Shown one piece after another: positions 1,604-60,320 of a stretch of DNA of 64,000 nucleotides. Origin of the DNA: a bacterium (GTDB lineage Bacteria; Patescibacteriota; Patescibacteriia; UBA10025); assembly GCA_021815445.1 (NCBI GenBank), contig JAKAGM010000002.1:95511-159510 (forward strand). The letters are read 5' to 3'. The translations under genes were made by a program, and so were the position numbers. Under the pieces are notes generated by a model that worked only from the letters and a program-made list of their open reading frames with translations, had not been told where the DNA came from and did not search any database. The number at the start of each line of letters is the position of its first letter. Position 1 is the first letter of the stretch.

Positions 1604-1942
1604 GTTCTGAGACTGTTTACAGGAATGTAAAGGTAATGTGTTTGTGAAGAGCGTATCTTCTGTGAATACGGTTAAATACTCACGCTCTATTAGTACTCCT
1701 CCGCTTCACTCCTTACGGAGCTTCCACGTAGAGCCTATCAACCCAATAATCTCTTGGGGAGCTTACTGAAATGTAATCTTGAAGGAGGTTTCACGCTTAT
1801 ATGCTTTCAGCGTTTATCCTTGCCGAACGTCGCTACCGAGCAATGCCCCTGGTGGGACAACTCGTCGACGAGAGGTTCGTTCTTCCCGGTCCTCTCGTAC
1901 TAGGGAAGAGTCTTCTCACATTTCTACGCCCGCGACAGATAG

Positions 1943-1994
<52 letters not shown>

Positions 1995-2007
1995 TGGCGA
2001 ACAGCCA

Positions 2008-2038
<31 letters not shown>

Positions 2039-2225
2039 CGATGGGCCGACATCGAGGTGCCAAACCCCCTCGTCGATGTGGACTCTTGGAGGGGATCAGC
2101 CTGTTATCCCCGGAGTAGCTTTTATCCGATGAGCTTCCGCCGTCCTATTTCGTGGACATACTACCTGCTATCCCTTTTGCAAGGAACAACAAGTAATACG
2201 CCGCGTACGGTCGGATCACTAAGTT

Positions 2226-2256
<31 letters not shown>

Positions 2257-2852
2257 TGCAGTAAAGCTGGCTTGTGGCTTTGCCCTATCTCTCGCATTTC
2301 CATCGCGAGATAGCCAACCTTTGTAAACGCCTCCGTTACATTTTGGGAGGCGACCGCCCCAGTCAAACTACCCACCAGACACTGTCCGTTCCCCGGATTC
2401 ACGGGTGAACGTTAGTCATAAAACCATCTCAGCGTGGTATTCCATATTGCGACTCCACCCCATCCAAAGACAGGGTTTCATAGTCTCCCACGTATGCTCG
2501 GCAGAGAAAACTCTATGACAATGCCAAGTTGTAGTAAAGCTTCACGGGGTCTTTTCGTCTAGCCGCGGGTAACGAGCATCTTCACTCGTCTTGCAATTTC
2601 GCCGAGTCCCTCGTTGAGAGAGTTTTCAAGTCGTTATGCCATTCGTGCAGGTCGTAACTTACACGACAAGGAATTTCGCTACCTTAGGACGGTTATAGTT
2701 ACCGCCGGCGTTCGTCAGCGCTTCAGCTCGGAGCTTGCACCCCTCACCTTAACGTTCTGACACTGGCCAGGCATCAGCCCCTATACATCACCTTTCGGTT
2801 TAGCAGGGACCTGTGTTTTTGATAAACAGTCGCTTGAAATCGTTTGCTGTGT

Positions 2853-3156
2853 CCAGCACCACTTTCAGTTGCCAAGCGAATGTTGTATACGTCGATACAA
2901 TTCTTGCTTAGCTCTGCCATGTTGTTTCAATCTACGTTCCCGAAGTATGGCGTCTTGTTTATTGCCATACTGTTCGCAATAGACAAGCTGCCACGCGCCT
3001 GATTGACGGTTCGTTGACGTTTGATTGCCGCTGTTATGTTCCTGCAATCGTCGGTCAAGATTGTGTGTCAGGCCTATATATAACTCCTTACTTACTGAGT
3101 GTCTAATGACGTAGATGTTCCACATAGTATTTGCTCCTTAAACTGAAAGTGGTGCT
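2853..3156 (-). mobile_element. Insertion within 23S (helix 63 variable region): 18-bp inverted repeat stem enclosing a GIY-YIG ORF
   Basis: ccagcaccactttcagtt (2853-2870) and aactgaaagtggtgctgg (3139-3156) are perfect inverted repeats. Flanking sequence aligns to E. coli 23S about 1690 and about 1770, so the insert replaces a variable helix. Confidence 0.55.
2865..3125 (-). CDS. stand-alone GIY-YIG nuclease domain protein (86 aa, YhbQ/Slx1-URI-like) encoded inside 23S insertion
   Basis: N-terminus YVIRHSVSKELYIGLTHNLDRRLQEHNSG matches the GIY-(x10)-YIG...R...E...N signature. The ORF exactly fills the loop of the 18-bp stem. Confidence 0.6.
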   Translation of the reverse strand: MWNIYVIRHSVSKELYIGLTHNLDRRLQEHNSGNQTSTNRQSGAWQLVYCEQYGNKQDAILRERRLKQHGRAKQELYRRIQHSLGN

Positions 3157-4385
3157 GGAGGGCCATGTACCGAAGGTACGGCCGTTGTTTTGCCGAGTTC
3201 CTAAACGAGGGTTCTCTCGTACACCTTAGGCTTCTCGCCTCACCCACCTGTGTCGGTTTCCGGTACGGGTACTACACTGATAATGTCTTCAATCTTTTTC
3301 TAGGCACCACATTTTCGCAAATTGGTATTGCCTTGCGACGCCACCTTTTGCCATCCCCAGCTTTCGCTGAAAACAGCAACGCGCATAACCAGAACACGCC
3401 CGCAATAGCTTGATGCGTCAGAAAGAAGACTCAATGCAGTAGTGCTGGAATATTAACCAGCTGTCCATCGGCTACGCATGTTAAGCCTCACCTTAGGACC
3501 GACTAACCCTGGGTCGATTTGCGTTGCCCAGGAAACCTTGGGTTTTCGGTGGACGGGGTTCTCACCCGTCTTTTTGCTACTTATGCCAACATTCTCACTT
3601 CGAAGCGCTCCACCGCCTCTTGTCGAGACGACTTCATGGCACTTCGAACGCTCCTCTACCACTATCTCGATTCCGAAGAACCGAGATAATTCCCACGATC
3701 GGTACGAAACTTAGCCCCGGTACATTTTTGGTGCACAGAAGCTTGACTAGTGAGCTGTTACGCTTTCTTTAAAGGATGGCTGCTTCTAAGCCAACCTCCT
3801 AGTTGTCAGGACTTCTACACTGCCTTTTACACTTAGTTTCGATTTAGGGACCTTACGTTGGGATCTGGGCTGTTTCCCTTTTGACCGGTGAAGCTTTGAC
3901 CCCACGGTCTGACTCCCCAGATAGTCTGCATCGGCATTCGGAGTTTGGTTTAGTAAAGTAGGCTTACGCCATCTTCACCAATTCAGTGCTCTACCACCGA
4001 TGCGTAGTTACTGGAGGCTAGCCCTCAAGCTATTTCGAGGAGAACCAGCTATCGCCGAGCTCGATTGGAATTTCTCCGCTATCCACGGGTCATCCCCGCG
4101 TGTTGTACGGCGCGTGGGTTCGGACCTCCCCCGCCTTTTACGGCGGGTTCATCCTGCCCATGGATAGGTCGCACGGCTTCGGGTCTTGTCGACAGAATCA
4201 AGGCGCGCTATTAACGCTCGCTTTCACTGTGGCTATTCCCTTCTCGGGCTTCACCAAACTCTGTCGAACAAACTCGTTGGCTCATTCTTCAATAGGCACG
4301 CCGTCACCCGGCTTGCGCCGAGCTCCGACTCCTTGTAAGTATATGGTTTCAGATACTTTTCATCCCCCTCACCGGGGTGCTTTTT

Positions 4386-4416
<31 letters not shown>

Positions 4417-5317
4417 ATCACAAAACGTATTTAGCCTTGGGACGATAGTCGTCCCTGCTTCCCATAAAATTTCACGTGTTTCATGGTACTCGAGAGAAAT
4501 CATCGTAGCTCCCAATCCGTTTCGCTTACGGGACTGTCACCCTCTGTGGTAGAGCTTTCCAGCTCCTTCTGCTACGGACTGAAGAGTGCCTTCACCACCC
4601 CAGCTTGCGCCGGGACGGATAAGGAACTCCCTCTAGGTCTGCTACCTCGAATCTACAGGATTCGAACATAATTTCCTCATCAACGCCCTCTTTCATTGGG
4701 CCTGCACCCATATCCTGCATTGCTGCAGGAAGAGAAGAGAGTTTTGGCTGTTCCCCTTTCGCTCGCCACTACTTAGGGAATGGGCCAAATCACACATTGA
4801 TACCCTGTCTTTCGACAGGAGATCAAACGTGCAATCTGACATTTGTTTCTTTTCCTCTGGCTACTAAGATGTTTCAATTCACCAGGTAGTCTTCACTGTG
4901 CCTATGAATTCAGCACAGGATGGCTGGCTCTTCGCCAGTCGGGTTTCCCCATTCGGACATCTCCGGATCAAAGGTTGGTTGCCACCTCCCCGAAGCTTAT
5001 CGCAGGCTCCTACGTCCTTCATCGTCGTTTTGTGTCAAGGCATCCACCATATACCCTTAAACGAGTATTTAACCGTAATCGCAAATGATACGGTTCTTAC
5101 TATTTGATGCTCATCACTTATGTTACCTCTACTACTACATATTCAGTTGTTAACGTTCATTCCTTGAGCAGAAGTAGAAAGATGAAACTGTTTTCATGCT
5201 TCTATTTCGGTTCTAGGGTTGGAAAGGGCACTCCTTTACCTACAGGACCCTTCGACTTCGCCCCGTGTGACTGTGGGGCTCCGCTCAGGGCAACTCGCTG
5301 ACGCTCGTTGAGTATGA

Positions 5318-22673: not shown

Positions 22674-23057
22674 TTACATAAAACGCCTCTGGGATATTTC
22701 GCCGAGTTCCAATTTTACGGCTTGACGGTAGAAGTACACATAGAGAGCGAGTACCACCACGCTGACGCCAAAGGTGAATAAGCTCGTGAGGAACGCAAGA
22801 ATAGTGTAGACCCCGAGGTACCATTGTGCCCATGAACGGACTCGAAACACGCCGATGCAGTTAACGAGGCCGATGACGATCTGGAGGCCGAGAGAAACAA
22901 CATAAACGACGGTTGAGAAGGTGCTTTTGCCAAAATCACTCACTACCTGCATGAAGTTTAGTACTCCAAAAACGACGCTCAGGATCACCCAGAGCAATAA
23001 GACAAACCAAATCAAGAGGAGGACGGGTTGCTGTTTGAGGGTGGAAAAAGTATCCAT
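22674..23057 (-). CDS. hypothetical integral membrane protein
   Basis: Three to four predicted TM helices; start chosen at MDTFST downstream of the candidate promoter. Confidence 0.45.
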   Translation of the reverse strand: MDTFSTLKQQPVLLLIWFVLLLWVILSVVFGVLNFMQVVSDFGKSTFSTVVYVVSLGLQIVIGLVNCIGVFRVRSWAQWYLGVYTILAFLTSLFTFGVSVVVLALYVYFYRQAVKLELGEISQRRFM

Positions 23058-23087
23058 CTTGATTTCTGGAAGTAAGTGCATGCATTA

Positions 23088-23116
23088 TAGCATTTTTTTC
23101 AGGAAAAAGCAACATA
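23088..23116 (-). promoter_or_regulatory. candidate sigma-70 promoter (TTGCTT-17-TATAAT)
   Basis: Minus strand: ttgctt tttcctgaaaaaaatgc tataat about 25 nt upstream of ATG. Confidence 0.4.
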
Positions 23117-23152
23117 TATAGTAATAACTGCAACTCCTTCAAGTATTATTAT

Positions 23153-23258
23153 CTCCCCAAGTCGGGCTAAAGGAGAGAGTCATCGGGTAATATCGCAAAA
23201 GCGAAACTGCCTGATGTATTTAGCCCGGCTTGTGGAGACAAATCCCTTTTTCACATCA
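23153..23258 (-). repeat. Structured about 105-nt element, copy 1 (paralog of 26430-26537)
   Basis: Minus strand: GAAAAAGGGATTTGTCTCC...CCGACTTGGGGAG with closing helix TCTCC/GGAGA, CAAG/CTTG and inner stem GCCGGGCTA/TAGCCCG. Copy 2 has the inner stem replaced by GCCGGACCAG/CTGGTCCG (covariation). Confidence 0.55.
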
Positions 23259-23272
23259 TCAAATAGTTCGAT

Positions 23273-23316
23273 GGGGTGGAAAAGAGAGAGGAGGCCTTGG
23301 TTGTGCGAACCAAGGC
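23273..23316 (-). terminator. Terminator-like hairpin with conserved loop GTTCGCACAA followed by CCTCTCTCTTTTCC (family member i)
   Basis: Minus strand ccttgg-ttcgcacaa-ccaagg then pyrimidine/T tract; immediately 3' of the radical-SAM gene. Confidence 0.5.
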
Positions 23317-23373
23317 TTTTTATCCGGCATGCGCCAGATAATGGGCCCTCCTCTGATTGACCTGGAAAAAGAA

Positions 23374-24615
23374 CTACTCAATCACCCTTTCCCAACCGTC
23401 CGGAAGAGAAAGCAGGTGATTCGTTGCATAGAATCGTAGGTCGCCCAAGGTCGGAGCAAGGCGATGGTTATTGAACAGTACAGAAGTTTGAAACTCCGTA
23501 CCCACCGTCATGGCCACATCCTCCGTGGCCACCTCCTCTGCCGGGAGCTGGACGAAATATCCATCCGCAGTCTCCCGGACACCGAGGGGATGAAAGCCCA
23601 GCCAGCGAAGATATTTGCCGATTTTTTCAGGATCGGCTTTCCCCCACTGGCCGAGCTCGTCTGTGCGCGGTCGGTTGTTCCGGTTGTACGGGACGGGCAT
23701 ACCAAATTCGTCTCGATACAAAGTGCCAGTGTGGCGATGCACACGGACACCACATTCCGCCGCGGTGGCCAGAATTGCCCTCTCAACCTCGGGAGCGAGC
23801 CAGTTTTTCATCCGGTAGTACGAATGCCCTGCCGGGTGTGCTTTCTCGTCTTGGCCGCCGTCGAGAAAACCTAACCTGCGAAGCTGGTCGTCTTCGGGCG
23901 CCACGCCGAAGTTTCCAACCGAACAGCCCCGATAGGTCAAGAACTGAATCCCGAGCTCGGCGAGCTCACGGATCAGCCGAACCCCCGCTTCGATGTTATT
24001 CGAGTTGAGAGGACCAAGCATCACCGAGATCCGACCGGCGGGGATACCAGCAGAGAACACCCGTTTTAGGCCAGCCATTTGCGCGGGCGGCTTAACGGGA
24101 CTCCCTTCGAACTCGGGGCAGGAGGGGGTAATCGTCGTGCAGAAAATCGCGCGGCGATCCGGCCCCCACTCCTTTATTTGGCGCCAGCCGAACGGCGCCC
24201 GGTGCAGGATAAACACTGGATTTCCATGCGGAAAAATCCGCAGGAACTCGGTGATCTCCGGCACCTGCATGGAGCCGTCGCTCCGGGCGCAGAGCATGAC
24301 GATGTCACGCTCCGGCTTGAACAGGCGACTCTGGTCCAGCCATTGGATCATCTCCTCCGGGGTGCAAATCCGGCGCAAGCCCTTCTGCCCTGTGCCGATG
24401 GTATCAACAGAATTGTTGATCCACCGGTAGTAGCAGAAGGAGCACCCGATCGTGCATCCCATAACGAGATCACCGTCCCAGGTGTAACGCCGCTTGTAAA
24501 ACGGTGCCGGGGCTACCGGGACGCTCTTCCAGCCGGGCGGCGTGCCACCAAGCAGAAGGTGTTCTCCATTAACAATTGCCGCATCTCGGGCGGCGGAAAG
24601 TTCATCAAAACCCAT
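23374..24615 (-). CDS. radical SAM enzyme (CxxxCxFC cluster motif; SplB/COG1533-like or ThiH/MqnC-like)
   Basis: GCTIGCSFCYY = C-x3-C-x2-C with aromatic residues, about 60 aa from N-terminus; 413 aa; high-GC codon usage. Confidence 0.65.
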   Translation of the reverse strand: MGFDELSAARDAAIVNGEHLLLGGTPPGWKSVPVAPAPFYKRRYTWDGDLVMGCTIGCSFCYYRWINNSVDTIGTGQKGLRRICTPEEMIQWLDQSRLFKPERDIVMLCARSDGSMQVPEITEFLRIFPHGNPVFILHRAPFGWRQIKEWGPDRRAIFCTTITPSCPEFEGSPVKPPAQMAGLKRVFSAGIPAGRISVMLGPLNSNNIEAGVRLIRELAELGIQFLTYRGCSVGNFGVAPEDDQLRRLGFLDGGQDEKAHPAGHSYYRMKNWLAPEVERAILATAAECGVRVHRHTGTLYRDEFGMPVPYNRNNRPRTDELGQWGKADPEKIGKYLRWLGFHPLGVRETADGYFVQLPAEEVATEDVAMTVGTEFQTSVLFNNHRLAPTLGDLRFYATNHLLSLPDGWERVIE

Positions 24616-25346
24616 TATACCTCCTTCCGCCCTAAAATGGGGGCGATTTTGGTCTTAAGTTCACGGCCTCGGCGAATTGCCTCTTCAGCGGATACGCCAT
24701 ACGCTCGCATGTAAGTCAGCCGGTCGAGTTTCTCGTCAGAGTTCTCGACACGGCCATCCTTGCCATGCAGAGCAGAAAGGCCGTCATCCAACATCTGGGC
24801 GGCTATGCCGTCCAGCCGTGCCGCCTCGCAAACTTGAGGCGGACAGCCAAGTGCCGCGGCAATAAACAGCCGAAAGGCGCTTTCTTTTTGCACTACACGC
24901 CACCAAGTTATTGTCGGCTCGAGTAGCGCATAGCCGGGATTTTCCAGCTCAACCTCCAAACGCGCGCCCTCAATTACCTCACGCAAGCGCTGTTCAAAGA
25001 GGAGTAGGATTTCCAACCGTGCGGCGATCTGGCGGGCTTGGGCAATATCCCATGCCGCCTGCTCAATCGCCGCCGCTCCGCTCCGAGTGAACCAGAAAGC
25101 CGGTGATCCGTCACGGACGGTATCCTCGTCAATGAGGTCGTCCATGACTTTAAACGCCCGGCGCAGGTGCTCCACCTGGCTGCACAAGAGGTCAACCTCT
25201 GTGGCAGTACGCGTGCCAAGCCGAGCCAAAGCCCGAACTTTTTTCGCATAACTGCCGGAGGTGACAACTTTTTCTATAAATCGCGGCGTCTGGAAACTAC
25301 GCTGATAAAACTGTTCCAGTGCCGCGAGTTTTTCACGCCAGTTCAT
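24615..25346 (-). CDS. isoprenyl diphosphate synthase-like protein (class I terpenoid synthase fold; short, divergent second Asp motif)
   Basis: VMDDLIDEDTVRDGSPA matches first aspartate-rich motif DDxxD-x4-RRG-xP of trans-prenyltransferases; stop overlaps start of radical-SAM gene. Confidence 0.5.
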   Translation of the reverse strand: MNWREKLAALEQFYQRSFQTPRFIEKVVTSGSYAKKVRALARLGTRTATEVDLLCSQVEHLRRAFKVMDDLIDEDTVRDGSPAFWFTRSGAAAIEQAAWDIAQARQIAARLEILLLFEQRLREVIEGARLEVELENPGYALLEPTITWWRVVQKESAFRLFIAAALGCPPQVCEAARLDGIAAQMLDDGLSALHGKDGRVENSDEKLDRLTYMRAYGVSAEEAIRRGRELKTKIAPILGRKEV

Positions 25347-26394
25347 CGAGCACCTCCGTTTGGAAGCCTATCGATTCACTGATGTACCGACACTGCCCAC
25401 TAACCATCTCCCGCGTCTGCTCCAGCGAACTGGAAACAAACAGCCAGGAGAAAAGCTCGTGAATGCCGGCGATGAAGTCCATACCGAAGTTAACTCGGCA
25501 TGTATGAGCCAGTCCGTCATAAACAACGCTGTTACCCGTGGTTTTCACCACAAAGTCAGCGAAGTCCATGACATCTAGGGCGCCCATGTCGCGCAGCAGC
25601 TCCTGTCGCCTGGCATCTTGCCAGTCATCAAAGTCGCCGCGCTTAAGACATTCCGCCTGTCGTTCGGTTTCATCCCTCTCCACCCGAACGACAATCGCGG
25701 GTCGGCGAGTGGCGTAGGAAGCATAAATGATTTGCTCCCGCCGCTTGATCCCGTCAACCACAGCAAATGTGGCCGGGTCCTGGCGGATTCCTGATTGCTC
25801 AAGAAACCGCCGTGCCACCGCTATCCGGTCCCTCGACTCCACCTCATTGGTGAATCGCTGAACCAGACTCCAGCTGTTTTCCGAAGTCATCGAGCCAAAA
25901 TTCGACTCGATTATCCCCTGGGCATACTCTCCCCACTTATAGCAAGAGAAATACGGAAGACTAGAAAATATCTTCCGCAACATCGTCTTGCCGCTGGCAG
26001 GGAGCCCCACCAGGCACACCATATACTTATTCAAAGTATATGGCTCACTGGGGAGATCGGGACGAGTTTTTGTAAACAACCCCTCCCTTCCCAGTAAATA
26101 GTGCTGGTGAAGATACGCCAATCGTGTCATGGTATTTCCGGCGTAATGAACCGGCCCCTCGACCCCCATGCCCTGCAACGCCAGCTCAACTTTGCGTTGA
26201 GTGAGCGCCGTGGTGACATTTTGGTCAAGGATCACAATCTCGTCGTACCGACGCCGGTGCGGGAGATTCCAAAACTCCACTCCGCGCTGGTCCAACCGCG
26301 AATGGTCGCTGATGACCACCTCCCACTCGCGTGGAAGAAGGTCAAGCAGTGCCACTCCTGATTTGGCTATAAGAATAGCCAAAATATTTTTCAC
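25333..26394 (-). CDS. two-domain P-loop kinase (N-terminal unknown domain plus polynucleotide-kinase/AAA_33-like kinase domain)
   Basis: Walker A CLVGLPASGKT; probable GTG start (VKNILAIL) 6 nt after AAAGGAGG; overlaps next gene by 14 nt. Confidence 0.55.
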   Translation of the reverse strand: MKNILAILIAKSGVALLDLLPREWEVVISDHSRLDQRGVEFWNLPHRRRYDEIVILDQNVTTALTQRKVELALQGMGVEGPVHYAGNTMTRLAYLHQHYLLGREGLFTKTRPDLPSEPYTLNKYMVCLVGLPASGKTMLRKIFSSLPYFSCYKWGEYAQGIIESNFGSMTSENSWSLVQRFTNEVESRDRIAVARRFLEQSGIRQDPATFAVVDGIKRREQIIYASYATRRPAIVVRVERDETERQAECLKRGDFDDWQDARRQELLRDMGALDVMDFADFVVKTTGNSVVYDGLAHTCRVNFGMDFIAGIHELFSWLFVSSSLEQTREMVSGQCRYISESIGFQTEVLDELA

Positions 26395-26429
26395 GCATTC
26401 CTCCTTTTTGCTTTTTGTCTTTGTCTTTT

Positions 26430-26537
26430 CTCTCCCCAAGTCGGACCAGTGGAGAGAGTGCTTCGTCTGACATTTAGTAATATCAGAAGAAGCGTCTGGT
26501 CCGGCTTTGGAAGACAAATCCCTTTTTCAACAATAAA
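26430..26537 (-). repeat. Structured about 105-nt element, copy 2 (immediately upstream of kinase gene RBS)
   Basis: See 23153-23258. Confidence 0.55.
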
Positions 26538-26587
26538 TAAACATGTGGGTAGTCGAGGCTTTTATGCCTTGGCAGTTATTTAATGTT

Positions 26588-26636
26588 AGAAAAGAGAGGG
26601 AAGCCGCCGCGATTGTGCGAACCACAGCGGCTTCCC
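26588..26636 (-). terminator. Hairpin family member ii (loop GTTCGCACAA, tail CCTCTCTTTTCT)
   Basis: Minus strand ggaagccgctgtg-gttcgcacaa-tcgcggcggcttcc. Confidence 0.5.
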
Positions 26637-26657
26637 GGAAAGTGCAGTCAAGTAGAC

Positions 26658-27002
26658 TTACGCCTCCTTGACCTCCGCGGCGGAGATCACATCTCCGACC
26701 GCGTAGTCACCACCGTGCGAGGAGGCGACGATGTAGGCCACCATCTTCGGATCGAAGACGGCGACCATTCCGAACCGGTGGACCAAGTGATGCGTCAGCA
26801 CCGCAACCACCGGCAGGGTGGCGGGCCCGTTGACCAGCGCCAGCTGGCCACCGAGCTCGCCCGCTTCGAGCTCGACCATCCGGGACTCCGCGTCCTGGAC
26901 GATCGCATTGTTCTTGGCCGGGTCGCCAAACCCGACCGTGAACAATGTAACAGGTTTCCCTGCGACGGAAACCTGTGATGTTTCAATCTTGTAAGTCGCC
27001 AT
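26658..27002 (-). CDS. hypothetical protein (114 aa)
   Basis: Start MATYKIETSQ after GAAGGGAGGG RBS; no motif assigned. Confidence 0.45.
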   Translation of the reverse strand: MATYKIETSQVSVAGKPVTLFTVGFGDPAKNNAIVQDAESRMVELEAGELGGQLALVNGPATLPVVAVLTHHLVHRFGMVAVFDPKMVAYIVASSHGGDYAVGDVISAAEVKEA

Positions 27003-27138
27003 TTTCCCTCCCTTCGAGAGGTAGCCCTTCTCACCAGCCAAAGCATGGCTACTTTAGCAAGGGCGGCCTTATTTTTCAGGCCTGGTTTGAATTTGAACCA
27101 ACCGCACCGGTGAGGCACGCGGTCAGTATGTTATTTAT

Positions 27139-27726
27139 TTACTTTTTTTCCTCGAGAGCAACTTGTTCCACGAGGAATTGGGCGAGTGCGGCCACGCATG
27201 GCCGCTGAGAAACATCCTCACCTCTTTCGAGGTAGTGAACGCTCCCCTTAAAGACTCCATCCTCGCCTACGCCTTGGACGGAGTCCTCCTGACCGTGGTA
27301 GTCCGAGAAAATCTCGGCTACCACTTTTATCCCAAGCTCTGTGCAAAACGCGCGCCACTCGGAAACCCGGCTCAAGTCGCCCGCCAGAATGACGGCGTGA
27401 GTCGCGGCGGCGCAAATCTTTTTATTCTCTGCACTGGGAATACCGCCAATATCCACCAGCGTCATGGGGAGTGTGCAGCTGGCGACCGAGTCGGCCACCC
27501 TCTCCACAAACAGTGGCGTGAACTTGGTCTTATAGGCCGCCTTGCACGCCGCCGCCAAGGCAGGATCTGCCTCAACGGTCTCCTGGAACCATGCGCCCTC
27601 CCCATCCGGACACGCGGTGATCACATATGGATACGGCGATCCAGGAATGCGCCGCACCGCCCGCTTGAGTCCTTCCCTCAAACAGGATTTGCCGGACCGT
27701 GGTGGTCCGCAGAGCACGATTTTCAT
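27139..27726 (-). CDS. small P-loop NTPase (195 aa; CobU/MobB-like architecture)
   Basis: Walker A LCGPPRSGKS at residues 6-15; Walker B-like hhhD (TLVDIGG). Confidence 0.5.
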   Translation of the reverse strand: MKIVLCGPPRSGKSCLREGLKRAVRRIPGSPYPYVITACPDGEGAWFQETVEADPALAAACKAAYKTKFTPLFVERVADSVASCTLPMTLVDIGGIPSAENKKICAAATHAVILAGDLSRVSEWRAFCTELGIKVVAEIFSDYHGQEDSVQGVGEDGVFKGSVHYLERGEDVSQRPCVAALAQFLVEQVALEEKK

Positions 27727-27799
27727 CGCCACTCCTTTCCTGCTTGGGAACGCCCAAGCTTGTTTTCTCCGCATCCAACTCACAAACCATTTGCGAGCT

Positions 27800-27848
27800 G
27801 GAAAAGAGAGGGAAGGTTCATAAGTTGTGCAAACTTATCATCCTTCCC
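27800..27848 (-). terminator. Hairpin family member iii (loop GTTTGCACAA, tail CCTCTCTTTTCC)
   Basis: Minus strand ggaaggatgataag-tttgcacaa-cttatgaaccttcc. Confidence 0.5.
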
Positions 27849-27995
27849 TTAAGTGCAAGCATTATGGGCTCAGACCACCCTTATAAGATGCCGGCCATCC
27901 GGACATCCACTTAAGGTAGCTTTCCCATTCAGGCATCTGCCAATGCCGCCCGATATTTCCCTCGATGCCAGGTTTTAGGGGAGAAGTCAGCAGTC

Positions 27996-28421
27996 CTAGG
28001 ACTGCTGAAAAATCTTGATCTCCACCCGCATGTATGTGACATACACGCGAAACTGACGAAATTTTTCCGCCAGTTTGGAGGCAAGATCTTCCACCATCAG
28101 CTTCCACTCCTCGTCGGATTCGCCCGAATACAATGGGCTTTTGTCCGCGAAGAGGGTCAGCGACGGCTCATCCTCGGCGTGCACGCCACCTTTACTCGGG
28201 TAAGCGTACACCAGCACCGTCTCCTGAATCCCGACCGGAATGTAATTCCGTCCGGCTTTAAGAGCGGCCCGGTATTCCTCCTTAAGAAAAGCGACTACCG
28301 CCGCCTTCTCTTGGAGAAATCCTTCGTAGCCCTGCTTCAGGCCAAGATTGATCTCGGCCCGCAGGGTGGAGGATGCCTCTCCTTTACGATCGCCCTCTTG
28401 GGCAATCGCATACTTTGCCAT
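27996..28421 (-). CDS. hypothetical protein (141 aa)
   Basis: GGAAGGAGG RBS; no motif assigned. Confidence 0.45.
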   Translation of the reverse strand: MAKYAIAQEGDRKGEASSTLRAEINLGLKQGYEGFLQEKAAVVAFLKEEYRAALKAGRNYIPVGIQETVLVYAYPSKGGVHAEDEPSLTLFADKSPLYSGESDEEWKLMVEDLASKLAEKFRQFRVYVTYMRVEIKIFQQS

Positions 28422-28527
28422 AATTTCACCTCCTTCCGGCTGGTTTATGGCTCGACCGTCGCACCGCGTCGTCCGGTTTGTGGGTATTTTCCACTTTCAG
28501 CTAGCAAATTATTTCTACGGGCTGAAA

Positions 28528-28566
28528 AAAACTAGGAACCGACGAAAAGCAAAACTGCCGGTTCCC
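28528..28566 (-). terminator. intrinsic terminator after exonuclease gene
   Basis: Minus strand ggaaccg-gcagttttgcttttcgt-cggttcc followed by tagttttttt. Confidence 0.5.
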
Positions 28567-28573
28567 AAAAAAG

Positions 28574-29128
28574 CTACATTTGTCCGAGTTGCTTGAGCGC
28601 TTTGATCGCGCACAAGCCGCTCACCCACGCATCATAGCGCGGGTCATGCTTCCGGCGCTGATCCGCTGGAATGTTTACCCAGTCCTCACCGTGAATCTGG
28701 TGAGGGACCAGGCCGCACGCCAGCTGTAAGCTGGCGCAGTCTATTAGCGGGAACGGGCCTTTGAACTCCCGTTCCTTGAAGTCATCCCGCTGGCAAGCCA
28801 GCAGGAAACCCGCTTCAACTGGATAGCCGTTGTCGGCTATCACGATCAGGCGGCCTTCCTTCTCGGCCGCCTTGTCCCTCTGGGTCTGAAGCCAAGCCCA
28901 GAAGGTGTCACGGAGTTCCCGGCCGTTGCCGAAATTCTCCGTGATCTGCATCCCTGGCAGCACGTTCTGTGCAACCCAGGGATCAACCGGGCCCTCAATC
29001 GGGCACCGGCCGACGAATTCAGAGAGCACATTGCCCTCCGAATCCATTGTAATAGCTCCCACGGCAAACGCAGCGCCGAGGAGCGAGTTGGTCTCGCAGT
29101 CAAACACAATAATGTTTTCTACCTTCAT
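28574..29128 (-). CDS. DEDD-family 3'-5' exonuclease (DnaQ/RNase T-like)
   Basis: Exo I motif IIVFDCETNSL; size and later acidic/His residues consistent with DEDDh. Confidence 0.65.
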   Translation of the reverse strand: MKVENIIVFDCETNSLLGAAFAVGAITMDSEGNVLSEFVGRCPIEGPVDPWVAQNVLPGMQITENFGNGRELRDTFWAWLQTQRDKAAEKEGRLIVIADNGYPVEAGFLLACQRDDFKEREFKGPFPLIDCASLQLACGLVPHQIHGEDWVNIPADQRRKHDPRYDAWVSGLCAIKALKQLGQM

Positions 29129-29417
29129 TACAACCTCCCTTTCCAAGTGTATGTCTTGTGATTAGAATCATTTCACCAACTGCAACCCCCACCTTAGTTA
29201 CAAGATGAGGGAGCGCACTTGGTGCTAGTGATCGCCGTCTCGTTACATCGCCTCGAAAAAAATCGAAGCTTTTAGATTCCTGATAGCGGCTAGCGAAGTT
29301 GATGCGAACTCACCGGACCATCTCTCTCCAAACCAACTGTTCCGGTCAGGTGATCTCGCATACATACCTATAAAGAACAAATGAAAGAACGATACTGCAA
29401 AAGAACAAACTCCTTCT

Positions 29418-29565: not shown

Positions 29566-29992
29566 GATCCAAGGTCATATCGTGAATAATTACTATAGCT
29601 CTTCGGCAGTTTTCACCGCCGCGTTCACCGTTCCCACTGTTTGAGCGGGGGAAGGTGCTCTCTCCATGCCCGCCCCGATTGCTATGAAGGGCGGCGCATA
29701 TCATTGATTCAATTTTCAAAGTTCGCTCGCTTCTCAGGTAACCATTTCTAGCGTAACGAGAGATTATATACCTAAAACAGAAACATGTCAATGCTTTTCG
29801 TCAAAAAATTACCAATATTATCAAAGTATAATGACTCCAACTATATTTTTATATGTCTGCTAAACTATGTTTGTCACTTTACGTTGACAAAGCTTACTAC
29901 CTATGATATACTTGATGTGGAAACAGATGTTTTGAGACGATCCAGAAAGTACAAGTGATAAATAGGTTATCCACAGGGTATAGACAATAAAA

Positions 29993-30760
29993 ATGGCGGA
30001 AAAAACGTCGGTAACAATAAAGACACTTGCCCAAGTAGGTCTCTCAGAAAAGGAGGCAACGATTTACGAGGCGCTCCTTCAGCTTGGTAAAGCTGGCATG
30101 GGTCAGCTCCTTGCCCGTGTCCCCTACAAACGAGGCAACGCCTATGACCTTGTTTACGAGCTTATGAGAAAAGGGCTTATTTCCGAAACGGAGGAACGGG
30201 GAAAAAAGGTATTTGCCATTGAGCCGCCGTCAGCATTAAAGGTACTCCTTGAAAACAGAGAGCAAGAGCTGAGACGCCAGCAGCAAACCTTGAGCGCAAG
30301 TCTCGATCAATTGCAATCAGCCTATCGATTGGCAATGAATAAGCCCGGCGTCAGATACTACGAAGGAAAAGAAGGGATAATAAAAATCTACGAGGAACTG
30401 CTCGAGAATAACCAGCCAATAGATAGCATTGAGGAAAAAGGCGATCTCCTTACCTACATTCCCGACTATGCGCCTCAGTACGTGAAAAAGCGCGTACAAA
30501 AAAAACTTTTTAATCGTGTCATTTCTCCAGATACCAACACACTCAACAAAACTGATAAAAACAAATTCATCGAGGCGCACCGCCTACCAGCCGATCAGTT
30601 TCCTTTCCGTATGGACATCAAAATCAGTGGAAACAAAATTTCCCTGATCACGTTCCAAAAAGAAAATGCCGTCGGCGTGCTGATGGATAATCCGGAGATT
30701 GCCGATAACTTCAAAATACTTTTTGAGTTTCTCTGGAGAAAAACAGCACCGTCAACCTAA
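29993..30760 (+). CDS. TrmB-family transcriptional regulator
   Basis: N-terminal winged HTH (LSEKEATIYEALLQLGKAGMGQL) plus C-terminal domain, about 255 aa. Confidence 0.65.
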   Translation: MAEKTSVTIKTLAQVGLSEKEATIYEALLQLGKAGMGQLLARVPYKRGNAYDLVYELMRKGLISETEERGKKVFAIEPPSALKVLLENREQELRRQQQTLSASLDQLQSAYRLAMNKPGVRYYEGKEGIIKIYEELLENNQPIDSIEEKGDLLTYIPDYAPQYVKKRVQKKLFNRVISPDTNTLNKTDKNKFIEAHRLPADQFPFRMDIKISGNKISLITFQKENAVGVLMDNPEIADNFKILFEFLWRKTAPST

Positions 30761-33750
30761 GCGGCCTTGTCGTGCTGGACGCTTTGCTCCACTCCGCCTT
30801 CCGCATCGAGACTACGAAGGTAATTTTTGTTGAGCAGGACATCATCGAGCGGAACTATCCGGCAACCTGGTTGGAGATTGGAGGTGATGGCATCCATCGG
30901 AGCCGTACCTCGGGCGATGACGACTGAAAGTGGAGCATCCTCTTGTTTGTAATCCTCCCCCTCTATGCCTTTACCGATAATGATAAATATTGAGATATCG
31001 AAATCGATGGCTCGATCCTGACGAAGCCGCTGTAAATCTTTTTCTACCTGTTGAAGTTCGGTGAATCGGTAATACCTCCCGAAATTCTCCCGGACGTTGT
31101 CATCGATATAGATACCGCCGTCTTTTAACTTTGCACAAACGTCCTGGATAAATTGGCCGTAGCGTTTTCGTTCCACATACACGGTCGAACGAACGCCGAG
31201 AGCGACATCTATCTGTTCGTCCTTCAGCCTAGCAACTTCATTAAATTCACCGAGGATAATGCCTGCAGGGTGGGCATTCAAGTGATCATAAAGATCAATG
31301 CCATCAAGGTTGTTTTTCGTGTATGCTTTCATATCTTGAGTCAGCAGTTCTCGCGCCCGCTGAACAGCCGGTGAAAGTTGCTGGATTGTTCGTTTTTTTA
31401 AATATCTCGGACCATCGGGAGTCTCTACTGCGTCGGAAGTTGGGATAGTTTCGGCGTCAGAAATCTTAGCTCCCATCTCAGCCATAATCTGTTTAAACGC
31501 ATTCGGATTCTGTTCCAGCCTCTGCCGGGTGTTTTCATCATAGGTGAGGGTATCATCTCCGGTCTTGCCTTGCTCGATGGCCATCACGGTCTTGAGGTAC
31601 TCAACGAGCTCACGCCGCTCATCGTGGGTAAGCGAGGTTCCAAGAGCTTTTTCCATCTTTTCATAATCAAGGAGGGCGTCCATAGGTACACTCGGATCGT
31701 AATACACCGCGTCACTCATTGCGAAATCTGCGTATTCATGACCTGTTCTATTGGCAATTCGCTGGTGTTTGGCTACGCCGCTCCCTGGGCCGAACTCTAC
31801 AAGAGTTTTGTCGCCTGGCCGAGATCGTCCGACGTCAGCCAAAAACTTCGTCGTATCGATGCCCAATCGGCGGTCATAGTCCTGAACACGACGGTCAACA
31901 CGCCAAAAAAGTTCTGGCATAGGCCTGAGTTTTCCCATAGCGGAGAGTGCACGGAGATACAGTCCCTCACTGCTCCACTGGGGATGCTCTGGCGTTGACT
32001 GAAGGCTTTCAAGGATGAGCTCCTGTCTCTGTCTGTAGCTGTTCAGGTCAACGTGATCTCCGCCGAGCGTTTCGGCAATTTTAATGAATTGCACCCTGAG
32101 CATCTCCTGCAGGGCATTCTCTTTTTTAAGTTCTACCAGCACTTCATCGATATCCGCCGGCCCCTTGTCCAGCTGATGGCGTACCTCTGTTAATAGGGAC
32201 TTGGCACGCAACATGAGACTCTCATACATTTCCTGCTCGGAGAATTTGAATTGCGGAAACATCGGCGCAAAATCGGTATGGATCCACTCCGCTTTTGCAC
32301 GCGCATCTTGAGACATCGTGGCGTACCGTGAAAAGAGTTTTTTTGCGTCTGCATCGTCGAGTCGCTCTGCTATGGCGAGCACCGTGTTGCCCATCGCGGA
32401 ATCTTGTTCAATGGATAAAAATGACTGTGCAATTTCATTCTTTGCGGCTGGGTGAGAGGCCAAGGCGTCTTTCATTCGTGAAAAACCTTCATGCTTACTC
32501 CCCGCAAGGTATTTTAAGAAATATACCTGTGAACGCAGCGGGAGCTCTGAGAAAGAGATCCTGACGTTTTGTTCTATCTTTTGCCTTAATGCAGGACGAT
32601 GAAGATGTTGCAGTAACAGTGAGGCCTCCTCTTCGCGCGTTTCGGCAAATGGATTGAGCTCCGTATCAGTCTCCAAAGACTCGGCCGGTTGGACATGCAC
32701 AGTTTGCGGATGTTTTTCCGAAAAGACACCTGGGTCGACTTTTCCCCAAAAACGAAGGATGTCGCTATGGTCAAAAACCCCAATTGCATTTTGCGCGATG
32801 CGCTGAACGCGTCCTTGGTGTCCCGTTGGCGCATCTGTTTCCAACTGCTGAGTGAGGTCTGGGTATGCCTCGCCACCGGCCTGGAGTGAATCAACAATCC
32901 TGCCCTCTCGCCGATCCCCGTGGTACTTTAACAAGCCTACTGATGGATTCTCTGCCTCATCGCGTACGCGCTCGAGAGCCAGCTCCGCCGTGTACCCAAG
33001 TATAGGGGAGTCATTGCGACGCTCAAGCTCTTGAATAATTTTCGAGACCCGCTGGTAGGCCCCCTCAGCCCAGTCTCCGTTGGCAACAGCTTGAGCTGCC
33101 ACAGTTTGCAGCTGATGGATTACATCGAGCTTGAGGGGCAGTGGTTGTTCGTCGACACGGTCGATGAGTTTCTTGATTGCGCCCTCGCCAGAAAAGCGAA
33201 GCCCGTACACAACCTCTCCGATCATGGCCTGTCCGAACCATCCTTGAACCTCAGGGACACGGGTCGCCTCAGCAGCCGCCAAAAGCTGATTGTCCAATGA
33301 AAGATGATTTGTGATATTAGGCGAGTACGAGAAAAGAAGCCCCTGTACTGAATCGAGGAAGTTGAGCAACTGTTCCCGCTTTTCCGGGTCTCCTGACCGC
33401 TGATTAACAAATTGTGTTAACTCATGAAAAAAAATTGCTACTCCATTGCTGTAGCGGGGAGTAAGTACACCCTGTTGGTATTCCGCACTGTCGCCGGTGA
33501 GGCGGGCAATTGAATCACCGACGATATCCGTTCCTATCATATCTCTGCCATGCCGATCTGACGAATTCGTGTAGAGTTCATCTAACCACTGGCGCGACCA
33601 AGAGCTGACACGCTCTTGAGCTTCACCGTCGAGCTCTGGTGACGAAGTGGTGTCTTTCTCCTTTTTCTCTTCCTTATCTAAGGAATCTCCATGAGTTTCT
33701 TGAGGTTGTTCCGGAAAGCCTATGTTTCTCATTGCTTCGTGGTGATCCAT
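30757..33750 (-). CDS. large (997 aa) protein with C-terminal class I SAM-dependent methyltransferase-like domain
   Basis: LVEFGPGSGVAK (motif I, E/DxGxGxG) and LKDGGIYIDD (motif IV-like) near C-terminus; N-terminal 600 aa helical, unassigned. Confidence 0.55.
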   Translation of the reverse strand: MDHHEAMRNIGFPEQPQETHGDSLDKEEKKEKDTTSSPELDGEAQERVSSWSRQWLDELYTNSSDRHGRDMIGTDIVGDSIARLTGDSAEYQQGVLTPRYSNGVAIFFHELTQFVNQRSGDPEKREQLLNFLDSVQGLLFSYSPNITNHLSLDNQLLAAAEATRVPEVQGWFGQAMIGEVVYGLRFSGEGAIKKLIDRVDEQPLPLKLDVIHQLQTVAAQAVANGDWAEGAYQRVSKIIQELERRNDSPILGYTAELALERVRDEAENPSVGLLKYHGDRREGRIVDSLQAGGEAYPDLTQQLETDAPTGHQGRVQRIAQNAIGVFDHSDILRFWGKVDPGVFSEKHPQTVHVQPAESLETDTELNPFAETREEEASLLLQHLHRPALRQKIEQNVRISFSELPLRSQVYFLKYLAGSKHEGFSRMKDALASHPAAKNEIAQSFLSIEQDSAMGNTVLAIAERLDDADAKKLFSRYATMSQDARAKAEWIHTDFAPMFPQFKFSEQEMYESLMLRAKSLLTEVRHQLDKGPADIDEVLVELKKENALQEMLRVQFIKIAETLGGDHVDLNSYRQRQELILESLQSTPEHPQWSSEGLYLRALSAMGKLRPMPELFWRVDRRVQDYDRRLGIDTTKFLADVGRSRPGDKTLVEFGPGSGVAKHQRIANRTGHEYADFAMSDAVYYDPSVPMDALLDYEKMEKALGTSLTHDERRELVEYLKTVMAIEQGKTGDDTLTYDENTRQRLEQNPNAFKQIMAEMGAKISDAETIPTSDAVETPDGPRYLKKRTIQQLSPAVQRARELLTQDMKAYTKNNLDGIDLYDHLNAHPAGIILGEFNEVARLKDEQIDVALGVRSTVYVERKRYGQFIQDVCAKLKDGGIYIDDNVRENFGRYYRFTELQQVEKDLQRLRQDRAIDFDISIFIIIGKGIEGEDYKQEDAPLSVVIARGTAPMDAITSNLQPGCRIVPLDDVLLNKNYLRSLDAEGGVEQSVQHDKAA

Positions 33751-37089: not shown

Positions 37090-38439
37090 CTACACAAGGT
37101 ACGGTCGAAGATTTTTCGATCTGCTGTTGTGGCGAAGGCGTCTGATAGCCTTCTCCTTGATCTGGCGAATCCGTTCGCGGGTAAGGTTGAATCGTACGCC
37201 GATCTCTTCAAGCGTCAACGACTTCTCGTGGGAGAGCCCGAAATAGAGATCAATGACCTCAGCCTCCCGAGGCGTAAGAGTCTCCATCGATCTCTCGATC
37301 TCTACGCGAAGTGATTTCTTGAGAAGATCGTCTTCCGGTGACGGAGCGTTCTCATCCGGGAGCACATCGATGAGTGAATTGTCCTCGGAGGTGGAGAAGG
37401 GTGTATCCAAAGACAGGTGCGTGTTGGAAATTTTCATCGTGTCGGACACTTCAGACTCCGAAATCTCCATTTCCTTGGCGATTTCTTCCGGCGTCGGTTC
37501 GCGTCCGAGTTCCTGTTCGAGAGCCGAAGATGTTTTGCCGATTTTGTGAAGAGTGCCTACTCGATTTAAGGGGAGACGCACGATGCGCGAGTGCTCGGCG
37601 AGCGACTGAAGGATCGCCTGGCGGATCCACCAAACAGCGTAACTGATGAACTTGAAACCGCGAGTTTCATCAAAGCGTTTCGCGGCCTTTATGAGTCCGA
37701 TGTTGCCATCATTGATGAGGTCGGCCAAAGACAAACCCTGTTTTTGATACTGTTTAGCGACTGATACGACAAACCGCAGATTCGCTTTTGTCATCCGTTC
37801 GAGTGCAGTTCGGTCACCCTGGTGGATGCGTTTTGCCAATGAGACTTCCTCTGCGGCTGTCAGTAACGGGGTGTCTCCAATTTCTTTCAGGTAGATATCA
37901 AGCGAGCGGTCCTCATCTTTGTAGCGTCTGCTAACCCGTATCGATACTGATGTCGTTGGTTCACTTGAATGTCCACGACCGGATCGAGAACTCCCGACAC
38001 TGGATTGTACGGGCATCGGTGCGAGGCGAGCCCGAACTACTTTTTTCGCGAGGATGACAACGGTCACCTGTGCATGTTCTTGGGCATTCCGCATCCAGAC
38101 ATAGAGCTTTGCGACTTTTAAGAAAAGCTTGTCGCTCAGCTCTTCATGATAGTCGGGCGGGAGGGCCGCGTAGATTTCATCCCAGTCGATTTGCCGGTGA
38201 TCTCCGTTTTGGGGCAGAAGCGCCAGGAGCCAGGCATGTTTACCCACCAATCCCCAGAACTCGTCCGGACCGATCTGTTGAAAGATGACGAACAGACGGT
38301 CTTCGTGTCGGCTTACAAAGGGTTCGAGGGGCTCGAGATCCTCCCGGCTTCCGTAAAAGCCGCGAAAGGCGGACATGGATATCCCGTCCATTCCCTTCAG
38401 CATTTCTCGAAGCAATTCAGCTCCCGTCATGTTCATCAC
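37090..38439 (-). CDS. rpoD: RNA polymerase sigma-70 factor with an unusual about 170-aa non-acidic N-terminal extension
   Basis: Regions 1.2-4.2 present (DIYLKEIG..., [38 protein letters not shown]); start uncertain. Confidence 0.8.
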
Positions 38440-59895: not shown

Positions 59896-60165
59896 CTTGT
59901 CCGGAATTTGATTTTTGCTGCGATAGGCATATACTTACTTTAGTTAAGTACTTTGACTATCCGGGAGGGGGTTCACGGCCCTCTTAGTTGGTGAAGCGAG
60001 CGTTTAAAGGCTCTTTGTCCACGGTGACACCTCCAGCATTTTTGTTCGGATGGGGAACTTTAAGCGGCTCAGCGCAGGAATCACGGATGATTCCTGCGCT
60101 TTTTCTTATGGACCTTGACTGATTTTATCTACGTGGTATCATCTATCTATTACTTTTTCTTATAA

Positions 60166-60320
60166 GGAGCGGAGCGAGGGAATTGGCCCAAAGACCTCCC
60201 GGCAGCCTGTCCCACAAGGGATGTACGGTGCCACGTCCAACCTCTTCATCGGCAAGGGGAAGATAAGAAGAATGCAGAGTCTTCTTATCAACGATAAGAA
60301 TTCTTTTATATATTATTAAC
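60166..60320 (+). promoter_or_regulatory. SAM-I (S-box) riboswitch with terminator/antiterminator expression platform controlling metK
   Basis: TTCTTATAAGGAGCGGAGCGAGGGAATTGGCCCAAAGACCTCCCGGCAGCC ... GGTGCC ... GAAGATAAGAAG matches S-box consensus. Antiterminator GATAAGAAGA/TCTTCTTATC competes with P1 and with terminator TCTTATC-aac-GATAAGA then TTCTTTT. Confidence 0.75.

Follow-up and report, generated by a model that had tools for sequence, protein, structure and literature searches.

A GC-rich island of seven genes is situated at positions 23150-29150 of a 64-kb window, the term used here for the whole stretch of 64,000 nucleotides that was analysed (contig JAKAGM010000002.1 of GenBank assembly GCA_021815445.1, from a bacterium of the Patescibacteriota lineage UBA10025). 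The genes, numbered g1 to g7, all lie on the minus strand and are listed with the repeats of the island in Table 1. An earlier reading made from the letters of the DNA, referred to as the original prediction, had proposed seven co-directional genes, and all seven open reading frames (ORFs) are present. Public gene calls on contig DAIENG010000002.1 of assembly GCA_027341205.1 match six of them (184, 141, 114, 353, 243 and 413 aa). The length called for g3 differs between records, with 211 aa in the NCBI record and 195 aa in a second copy, from a sequencing-run assembly. The main subject of this report is the set g5, g6 and g7, termed the triad, in which a divergent radical S-adenosylmethionine (radical-SAM) enzyme is joined by a phosphoribosyltransferase-kinase-like protein and a prenyl-synthase-like protein.

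Table 1. Genes and repeat elements of the island, in window coordinates.
Feature	Position	Strand	Description
g1, 184 aa	28574..29128	-	DEDDh-like 3'-5' exonuclease family, CPR/DPANN-type genomes only; occasional accessory of the triad
g2, 141 aa	27996..28421	-	distant member of Mvol_0529-fam, type III-B CRISPR accessory cluster 96 of Shah et al.
g3, 195 aa	27139..27726	-	small P-loop NTPase, the "AAA" half of the type III CRISPR accessory family Csx3-AAA / AAA-Csx3, here a separate gene
g4, 114 aa	26658..27002	-	Csx3/Crn3-family protein, catalytic residues retained
g5, 353 aa	25333..26394	-	first triad gene; N-terminal phosphoribosyltransferase-like and C-terminal NMP-kinase-like P-loop domain
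g6, 243 aa	24615..25346	-	second triad gene; short trans-isoprenyl-diphosphate-synthase-like protein
g7, 413 aa	23374..24615	-	third triad gene; divergent radical-SAM enzyme, C-terminal extension of ~170 aa
repeat copy A	26428..26636	-	terminator-like hairpin, then a leader of ~190 nt, between g4 and g5
repeat copy B	23149..23312	-	3' of g7, upstream of a gene for a 135-aa membrane protein (22674-23081)
third terminator-like hairpin	27804..27836	-	g2-g3 intergenic region; repeat family D1, 64% identity to the reference copy

The triad genes are translationally coupled, as had been predicted: g5 shares 14 nt with g6 (25333-25346), and g6 shares one with g7 (24615). The idea of a single seven-gene operon does not survive, since g1 to g4 are separated by intergenic regions of 136-270 nt and only g5 to g7 are tightly packed; terminator-like hairpins are found 3' of g2 and of g4. 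The shift in composition is substantiated. The guanine-plus-cytosine (GC) content of the island is 0.556 against a mean of 0.498 in 6-kb windows that do not overlap it (z = 3.4; 185 windows, standard deviation 0.017, maximum 0.527), and the mean GC at third codon positions (GC3) is 0.671 for the seven genes against 0.532 (standard deviation 0.063) for twelve flanking genes. The comparison covers the 64-kb window.

The predicted structure of g5 (predicted local distance difference test, pLDDT, 91.7) resolves into two domains. The N-terminal domain has a predicted phosphoribosyltransferase fold, and the motif for phosphoribosyl pyrophosphate reads D57-x-N59-x2-T62-(A/G)-x-T65 in the family; the phosphate loop is kept and one acidic residue is replaced. 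The C-terminal domain shows both a Walker A loop and a nucleoside monophosphate (NMP) kinase fold. The Walker A loop that had been read from the sequence, GLPASGKT, is conserved in the g5 family.

The resemblance of g6 to prenyl synthases, also part of the original prediction, is borne out at the level of the family: its profile aligns with octaprenyl-diphosphate synthase (E = 2.4e-5) over the stretch that begins with the first Asp-rich motif and ends with the second. The window copy scores 25.0 bits against Pfam PF00348, below the cutoff of 27. Residues D69, D70, D73, E74, R78, Q184, D187, D188, K196, G198 and R199 are invariant in the g6 family. The first five of these align to the motif of octaprenyl-diphosphate synthase in the expected order of DDxxD followed by an arginine, and the stretch DDLIDEDTVRDGSP, proposed earlier as the first Asp-rich motif, is indeed conserved. 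The second motif reads DDxxS, with Q184, D187 and D188 invariant. In comparison with trans-isoprenyl diphosphate synthases (PF00348; octaprenyl diphosphate synthase, 3wjk), g6 thus aligns from DDxxDE...R to Q..DD and the following K.GR. It differs from them in length (243 aa against ~300-340 aa), in the DDxxS form of the second motif and the score below the Pfam cutoff, and in its invariable partners, a phosphoribosyltransferase-kinase protein and a radical-SAM enzyme, to which it is coupled or fused.

The assignment of g7 to the radical-SAM enzymes by its CxxxCxFC motif is confirmed, since C54, C58 and C61 are invariant in 30 homologues; the longer pattern GCxxGCxFCYYRW is invariant in the family. 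The predicted structure (pLDDT 94) contains the partial TIM-barrel core fold of radical-SAM enzymes. Foldseek searches with this model prefer NifB, SkfB and SuiB at a query template modelling (TM) score of ~0.4. Judged by the model, g7 represents a distinct radical-SAM subfamily without a close solved relative. The g7 family profile found nothing among the sequences of solved structures, and g7 did not match the profiles of the prokaryotic viperins (pVip). No viperin, menaquinone/futalosine or Dpd/Dnd model matches any of the seven proteins, in agreement with the original prediction that the locus is none of these.

Homologues of g7 are very scarce: 64 were found among 5.8 billion proteins, and only 8 of 185,579 species genomes contain one. 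These eight belong to a Pacearchaeota archaeon, Smithella, Minisyncoccales, a Thermoplasmata archaeon, Saccharibacteria, a deltaproteobacterium, Fervidicola and one unclassified bacterium. Metagenomes supplied 62 more triad loci, and dereplication of the triad loci (individual loci are given with the prefix L) yielded 44 locus groups, on which the counts below are based. The distribution is patchy and extends over bacteria of the candidate phyla radiation (CPR), DPANN and other archaea, Deltaproteobacteria, Firmicutes and Thermus. Wherever a contig extends far enough, the homologues of g5, g6 and g7 are adjacent. A single protein of ~480-600 aa unites g5 and g6 in more distant clades, and one homologue is a Fic-phosphoribosyltransferase-kinase fusion.

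It is only these three genes that always travel together, so the seven genes are not the conserved unit they had been taken for. Genes of the g3/g4 type accompany the triad in about one third of the locus groups, a g1-type gene in 3 of the 44, and g2 in none. A possible fourth conserved gene 3' of g7 (the cluster of L041:3923-4949) was rejected, because its ORFs are read in alternative frames and overlap the radical-SAM gene at its 3' end.

The triad is richer in GC than its distal flanks in most loci (0.60 vs 0.37 in L029, 0.585 vs 0.33 in L027, and 0.47 vs 0.34 in L016). The compositional anomaly is thus a general property of the cassette, not of this window alone, which supports horizontal transfer; with the GC and GC3 values of the island, this bears out the earlier proposal that the island was acquired horizontally. 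The original prediction had also recognised no described operon in the gene set, and searches of PADLOC, NCBIfam and the literature found no description of it; NCBIfam models gave nothing useful for the island proteins. The triad is a rare, undescribed cassette that matches no entry in these sources.

Two of the genes preceding the triad belong to a family known from type III CRISPR loci. The 114-aa protein g4, listed as unknown in the original prediction, is a Csx3/Crn3 protein: it scores 29.1 bits against Pfam PF09620 (cutoff 21) and matches five PADLOC Csx3 models, including the N-terminal half of Csx3-AAA at 1.3e-15. Against the NCBIfam equivalog TIGR02579 it remains below threshold (26.4 vs a cutoff of 55.4). 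The characterised members of Csx3/Crn3 are Mn-dependent ring nucleases of cyclic tetra-adenylate. When g4 is aligned to AfCsx3, in which the roles of H57, H60, D69, R71 and H80 have been described (PMC7371418), the residues H57, H60, D69 and H80 are conserved and R71 is replaced by lysine. Other standalone Csx3 copies linked to the triad keep the catalytic H/H/D/H pattern. The fused copies described below have lost D69 and H57, which would be expected of a role confined to binding the ligand.

The small P-loop nucleoside triphosphatase (NTPase) g3 matches positions 109-285 of the PADLOC Csx3-AAA profile (E = 5.6e-59) and is 54% identical to a Nostoc plasmid gene located inside a type III CRISPR-Cas locus. 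Its proposed Walker A loop, GPPRSGKS, is conserved in the g3 family as GPPxSGKS together with a DxGG motif; g3 and g5 are thus both P-loop proteins with a conserved Walker A, as had been claimed. In profile searches the g3 family shows otherwise only generic P-loop/GTPase-like similarity, and nothing was found for g3 among solved-structure sequences. The two proteins match the two halves of Csx3-AAA / AAA-Csx3 (clusters 35 and 67 of Shah et al. 2019; e.g. Synechocystis Slr7080). This is in contrast to the arrangement of that family in CRISPR loci, since here the halves are two genes 136 nt apart rather than one Csx3 plus P-loop protein, no cas gene or array is adjacent, and the link is to the triad instead. 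Even within CRISPR loci, the P-loop half has no known function (PMC12409355).

The association of this pair with the triad was counted by iterated profile searches over all ORFs in the loci, collected in a table per group. In 16 of the 44 groups a g3-type NTPase domain is encoded no more than 8 kb from the radical-SAM gene, mostly together with Csx3 or fused to it; the domain is present in ~14 of the 26 groups that have at least 4 kb of upstream sequence. The link takes three forms. The NTPase and Csx3 are separate genes, as in this window; they are joined in AAA-Csx3 fusions of 364-424 aa (PADLOC C3a67, E = 1e-42 to 1e-53); or, in the clade with long radical-SAM proteins, the gene directly upstream of the one for the radical-SAM enzyme encodes a protein of ~700 aa whose C-terminus is of the g3 type and whose N-terminus is weakly DHH-like (Pfam E = 0.05). 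Comparison of sequence identities further reveals that the radical-SAM and NTPase genes are incongruent. L020 has the closest radical-SAM relative (82%), yet a distant fused NTPase (33%), and L059 has a distant radical-SAM gene (41%), yet a close NTPase (61%) and Csx3 (42%). This incongruence points to repeated acquisition of NTPase and Csx3, and the three architectures appear to have been acquired independently.

Other genes recur directly upstream of the g5 homologue: a gene with a SAVED domain in the Pacearchaeota locus L012 (6451-7023, 29.3 bits), Fic genes in L026 (28.3 bits) and L020, NUDIX genes in L029 (6619-7203, E = 1e-14), L064 and L066 (3-4 groups in all), and a second radical-SAM gene in L059. 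Of the 44 groups, 12 contain a member of one Fic family with the motif HFFADGCGKTAK, either as a standalone protein or joined to the N-terminus of the radical-SAM enzyme; this window has no member of it. At some loci the neighbours resemble mobile-element or defence genes, namely a serine recombinase, ParB/SSB/ALP, a type II methyltransferase, an SNF2 helicase with a mad2-like protein, and nSTAND/PIN. We also note that L059:375-9592 is a compact same-strand cluster and the richest version of the system found, in the order NTPase, Csx3, second radical-SAM gene, DHH-like-NTPase, Fic-radical-SAM fusion, phosphoribosyltransferase-kinase-prenyl-synthase fusion and a 285-aa Csx3-like protein.

These associations bear on whether the island is a chance juxtaposition, in which a housekeeping-type RNA exonuclease (g1), an orphan remnant of type III CRISPR ancillary genes (g2 to g4) and an independent biosynthetic triad lie side by side and share no functional link. 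The long intergenic regions with terminator-like hairpins between g1 and g4, coupling being confined to g5 to g7, speak for such a patchwork, as do the direct repeats of ~190 nt on either side of the triad, which give it the look of a cassette in its own right. In addition, g2 accompanies no other triad, the g1 family is normally syntenic with RNase Y, and about half of the triad loci have neither Csx3 nor the NTPase. We nevertheless regard chance as quite improbable. Three architectures bring a g3-type NTPase, mostly accompanied by Csx3, into the neighbourhood of the triad, and both deep clades of the triad include such loci; the incongruent identities imply that the NTPase was acquired repeatedly and independently. 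The g3 family is otherwise very rare, with homologues in 13 of 72,556 plasmid records (7.3 Gb), compared with a total of ~0.5 Mb for the dereplicated triad loci. The place directly upstream of g5 is repeatedly taken by SAVED, Fic or NUDIX genes, and the GC3 shift is common to all seven genes of the island.

We give an even chance to the reading that the island is a horizontally acquired, modular, nucleotide-centred conflict cassette, probably antiviral. Its basis is the identity of the domains, the strict co-occurrence of the triad and its fusions, its rarity and patchiness, its composition, and the recurrent association with sensor and accessory genes; a defence function is what we infer, and likewise the substrate, the product and the direction of signalling. 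The original prediction had spoken of a module for nucleotide or nucleic-acid modification, repair or defence. The defence part of that proposal is favoured here, and modification or repair of polymers is retained as a rival only.

In the latter explanation the radical-SAM enzyme would act on DNA or RNA polymers in the manner of spore photoproduct lyase, and the kinase and exonucleases would process ends. Accessories of the exonuclease type do recur (the DEDD-like and DHH-like proteins, and Csx3, which was first described as a deadenylase), and methyltransferase and helicase genes neighbour L006 and L009. The explanation rests mainly on the likeness of g7 to the lyase, and this match is marginal: pyruvate formate-lyase-activating enzyme scores 14.4, and Foldseek places NifB and SkfB first. 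No restriction or other nuclease partner is consistently present in the 44 groups, and no PADLOC model of Dnd, Dpd or another modification system matches any of the seven proteins. Polymer modification or repair is therefore considered quite unlikely.

A metabolic or natural-product operon is somewhat less improbable, while still unlikely. Here the triad would make an isoprenoid-derived lipid or cofactor, or a nucleoside or terpene-nucleoside metabolite, and would have no immune function. Such a role suits the retention of both Asp-rich motifs of trans-prenyl synthases in g6, a phosphomevalonate-kinase-like match, and the position of some loci, e.g. L010, among housekeeping genes. It is harder to reconcile with a triad that is extremely rare and patchy and occurs in CPR and DPANN organisms with tiny genomes. 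The loci contain no consistent transporter, regulator or tailoring genes, and are recurrently linked to Csx3 and SAVED sensor domains, Fic and NUDIX. The shortness of g6 (243 aa, where canonical synthases have ~300 aa or more) is also at odds with it.

Several points weigh against the conflict reading itself, which is drawn from sequence and predicted structure. Among the locus groups whose flanks are long enough to judge, about half have no sensor gene, and defence-like neighbours occur in only a few loci, as noted without a systematic survey. Tandem-repeat and k-mer scans of the window and of 81 loci, together with PADLOC on the ten largest other ORFs of the window, revealed neither a CRISPR array nor a cas gene in the 64-kb window or within 10 kb of any of the loci. 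With no cas gene or array nearby, the source of any cyclic oligoadenylate is not accounted for, and type III systems are rare in CPR genomes. PADLOC has no match for the triad, and relatives of g7 are absent from IMG/VR viral contigs, INPHARED phages and PLSDB plasmids. The fold of g7 does not tell which class of substrate the enzyme acts on, since no close relative of it has been solved. A prenyl-synthase-like protein is without precedent in nucleotide-based defence, and an isoprenoid role fits it equally well.

If the island is a conflict cassette, the triad may be a three-step pathway that makes a modified nucleotide or a small molecule derived from a ribosyl diphosphate. The phosphoribosyltransferase-like domain of g5 would hold a 5-phosphoribosyl compound, which the NMP-kinase-like domain would phosphorylate. 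The two Asp-rich Mg2+ motifs of g6 would bind or ionise a diphosphate ester, and the 5'-deoxyadenosyl radical derived from SAM by g7 would rearrange or dehydrate the intermediate. The products of g3 and g4 could form a split Csx3-plus-NTPase module that couples the pathway to a ligand of the cyclic-oligoadenylate type. Csx3, predicted to be catalytically intact in g4, would bind and cleave this ligand, and the NTPase would transduce the signal or reset the system. In other loci SAVED or DHH-NTPase proteins may take the linking role of the Csx3-NTPase pair. The RNA exonuclease-like g1 and the CRISPR-accessory-family protein g2 would then be lineage-specific additions.

Two forms of this scheme can be envisaged, each held to be less probable than the general conflict reading. 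The triad may be an effector that makes an antiviral nucleotide analogue, with nucleases and NUDIX proteins limiting self-damage or resetting the signal, or it may make a messenger that the variable sensor proteins read and degrade. Only tentatively do we propose that the triad is the core of an unrecognised immune signalling or effector pathway apart from neighbouring CRISPR-Cas. On sensing cyclic oligoadenylate it would make a new antiviral nucleotide by radical chemistry; alternatively, its product would be a new second messenger, derived from a nucleotide or from SAM, that interchangeable Csx3-NTPase, SAVED and DHH-NTPase partners read and switch off.

Comparison with known systems places the island nearest to Ophion among the validated ones. 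Ophion consists of OpnA (radical SAM), OpnB (PHP) and OpnC (phosphoribosyltransferase) and protects against jumbo phages (bioRxiv 10.1101/2025.09.30.679545). It is likewise a three-gene cassette, in which a radical-SAM enzyme is combined with a protein of the phosphoribosyltransferase fold and an accessory of the phosphoesterase/exonuclease type, and it is proposed to act through modified nucleotides, a feature shared with the model for the island. The island is not an Ophion locus, since g1 to g7 contain no PHP domain; the comparison was made by gene content. Unlike in Ophion, the phosphoribosyltransferase-like domain of the island is fused to an NMP kinase, the prenyl-synthase-like protein is obligatory, and sensor domains for cyclic oligonucleotides are present. 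The hosts of Ophion are Gammaproteobacteria.

The prokaryotic viperins are often encoded with nucleotide kinases. The island resembles them in having a radical-SAM gene beside a gene of the nucleotide-kinase type, and the working model of a radical-made antiviral nucleotide analogue is common to both. The third comparison is with the CorA loci of type III CRISPR systems, in which the SAM-AMP signal is switched off by NrN (DHH) or DEDD phosphodiesterases (PMC11229360). The same classes of small-nucleotide phosphodiesterase, which serve as off-switches in CRISPR signalling, are found near the triad, namely Csx3, the DHH-like domain and the DEDD-like protein. In contrast to CorA modules, the island has neither CorA nor Cas10, g1 has no match to the CRISPR DEDDh model, and the DHH assignment is a weak one.

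The families of g2, g3 and g4 are already known as type III CRISPR accessories; here they stand in a non-CRISPR context, g3 and g4 are split, and the core formed by the triad is uncharacterised. Should the island be an immune module, it would add the chemistry of radical SAM, a prenyl-synthase fold and a phosphoribosyltransferase-kinase to nucleotide-based antiviral defence, and it would be the first case of radical-SAM and terpene-synthase-fold chemistry wired to sensors of the CARF/SAVED type. The Csx3-AAA family, the P-loop half of which has lacked a known function since 2018, also gains its first testable context. Sensor domains for cyclic oligonucleotides (Csx3, SAVED) are here found away from CRISPR-Cas loci, including in CPR and DPANN organisms, whose defences are poorly known. 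With 3-5 genes the system is compact and amenable to heterologous expression and nucleotide mass spectrometry. Even a metabolic triad would define a new, highly conserved radical-SAM family with obligate partners.

The first two genes of the island are less closely tied to the triad. The DxE motif claimed for g1 holds, as D10-x-E12 is invariant in 26 homologues; the whole invariant set is D10, E12, E105, H161 and D166. In the motif order of DEDDh exonucleases, DxE and H161-x4-D166 are present and motif II has E105 in place of D. Profile matches are weak and come from single members (RNase T of the PDB, E = 0.75; Rv2179c-like, 0.0012; RNase_T, 0.023); the claimed DEDD exonuclease is plausible from the motifs and these weak matches. 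The sequence of g1 is consistent with a DEDDh-like exonuclease. No PADLOC model, including that of the CRISPR-associated DEDDh, matches g1, and g1 itself has no match among solved-structure sequences.

Homologues of g1 adjoin the triad in L012/L021 and L027. The family is also found just downstream of RNase Y in three Saccharibacteria-type loci (L083:8001-8600, L084:8001-8564 and L085:8001-8573), directly adjacent in two of them. In these loci LTD, TsaE and TsaD precede the g1-family gene, and HU follows it in two. The position beside RNase Y points toward RNA as the substrate and suggests that the family is an uncharacterised exoribonuclease partner of RNase Y in Saccharibacteria-type bacteria.

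The 141-aa protein g2, the second of the supposed unknowns, can be placed in the Mvol_0529 accessory family: 13 of 28 members of the g2 family match it, the best with E = 1.8e-7, and g2 itself matches PADLOC PDLC01067 at E = 0.0068. The family is listed as cluster 96 (PMC6546367). The g2 family is small, with 39 cluster representatives among 1.8 billion, and profile searches of the locus ORFs found no g2 homologue in any triad locus.

The triad is bracketed by a structured repeat (copies A and B of Table 1), a direct repeat of ~190 nt in three blocks with 76-90% identity. It comprises a terminator-like hairpin with a GGTTCGCACAA loop, followed by two further hairpins. The region between g4 and g5 that holds copy A (26395-26660, 266 nt) has a predicted fold z-score of -7.6 relative to shuffled sequence, and the region between g7 and the membrane-protein gene that holds copy B (23082-23373, 292 nt) one of -7.0. 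The two regions have similar predicted folds with three hairpins, in which the inner stems differ in sequence but still pair. Private structured RNA-like motifs had been described for the island, and the element is indeed private to this genome; an Rfam search of the repeats gave only sub-threshold chance matches and no family. The repeat could be a duplicated regulatory leader or the scar of a cassette insertion.

Upstream of the island, ~635 nt before g1, a perfect sigma-70 consensus (TTGACA, 17 nt, TATAAT) faces the seven genes at 29763-29791 (-). It sits in a gap of low GC (0.44), and a near-perfect divergent promoter-like site is found at 29884-29912.

The remainder of the 64-kb window contains a few further features. 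The match to 23S rRNA at 1669-5073 (-) spans 3405 nt compared with 2925 positions of the model, which leaves ~480 nt of inserted sequence, possibly an intervening sequence or an intron, of a type that has been reported from CPR bacteria. An ORF of 997 aa (30757-33750, -) beside a TrmB-family regulator (29993-30760) has no Pfam or PADLOC match. An ORF of 449 aa (37090-38439, -) matches the C-terminal part of the PADLOC MzaA model (E = 3.4e-47) and may be a housekeeping ATPase rather than a defence gene. A SAM riboswitch of ordinary type is located at 60157-60269 (+; Rfam RF00162, 56.7 bits), upstream of a 381-aa ORF (60336-61481).

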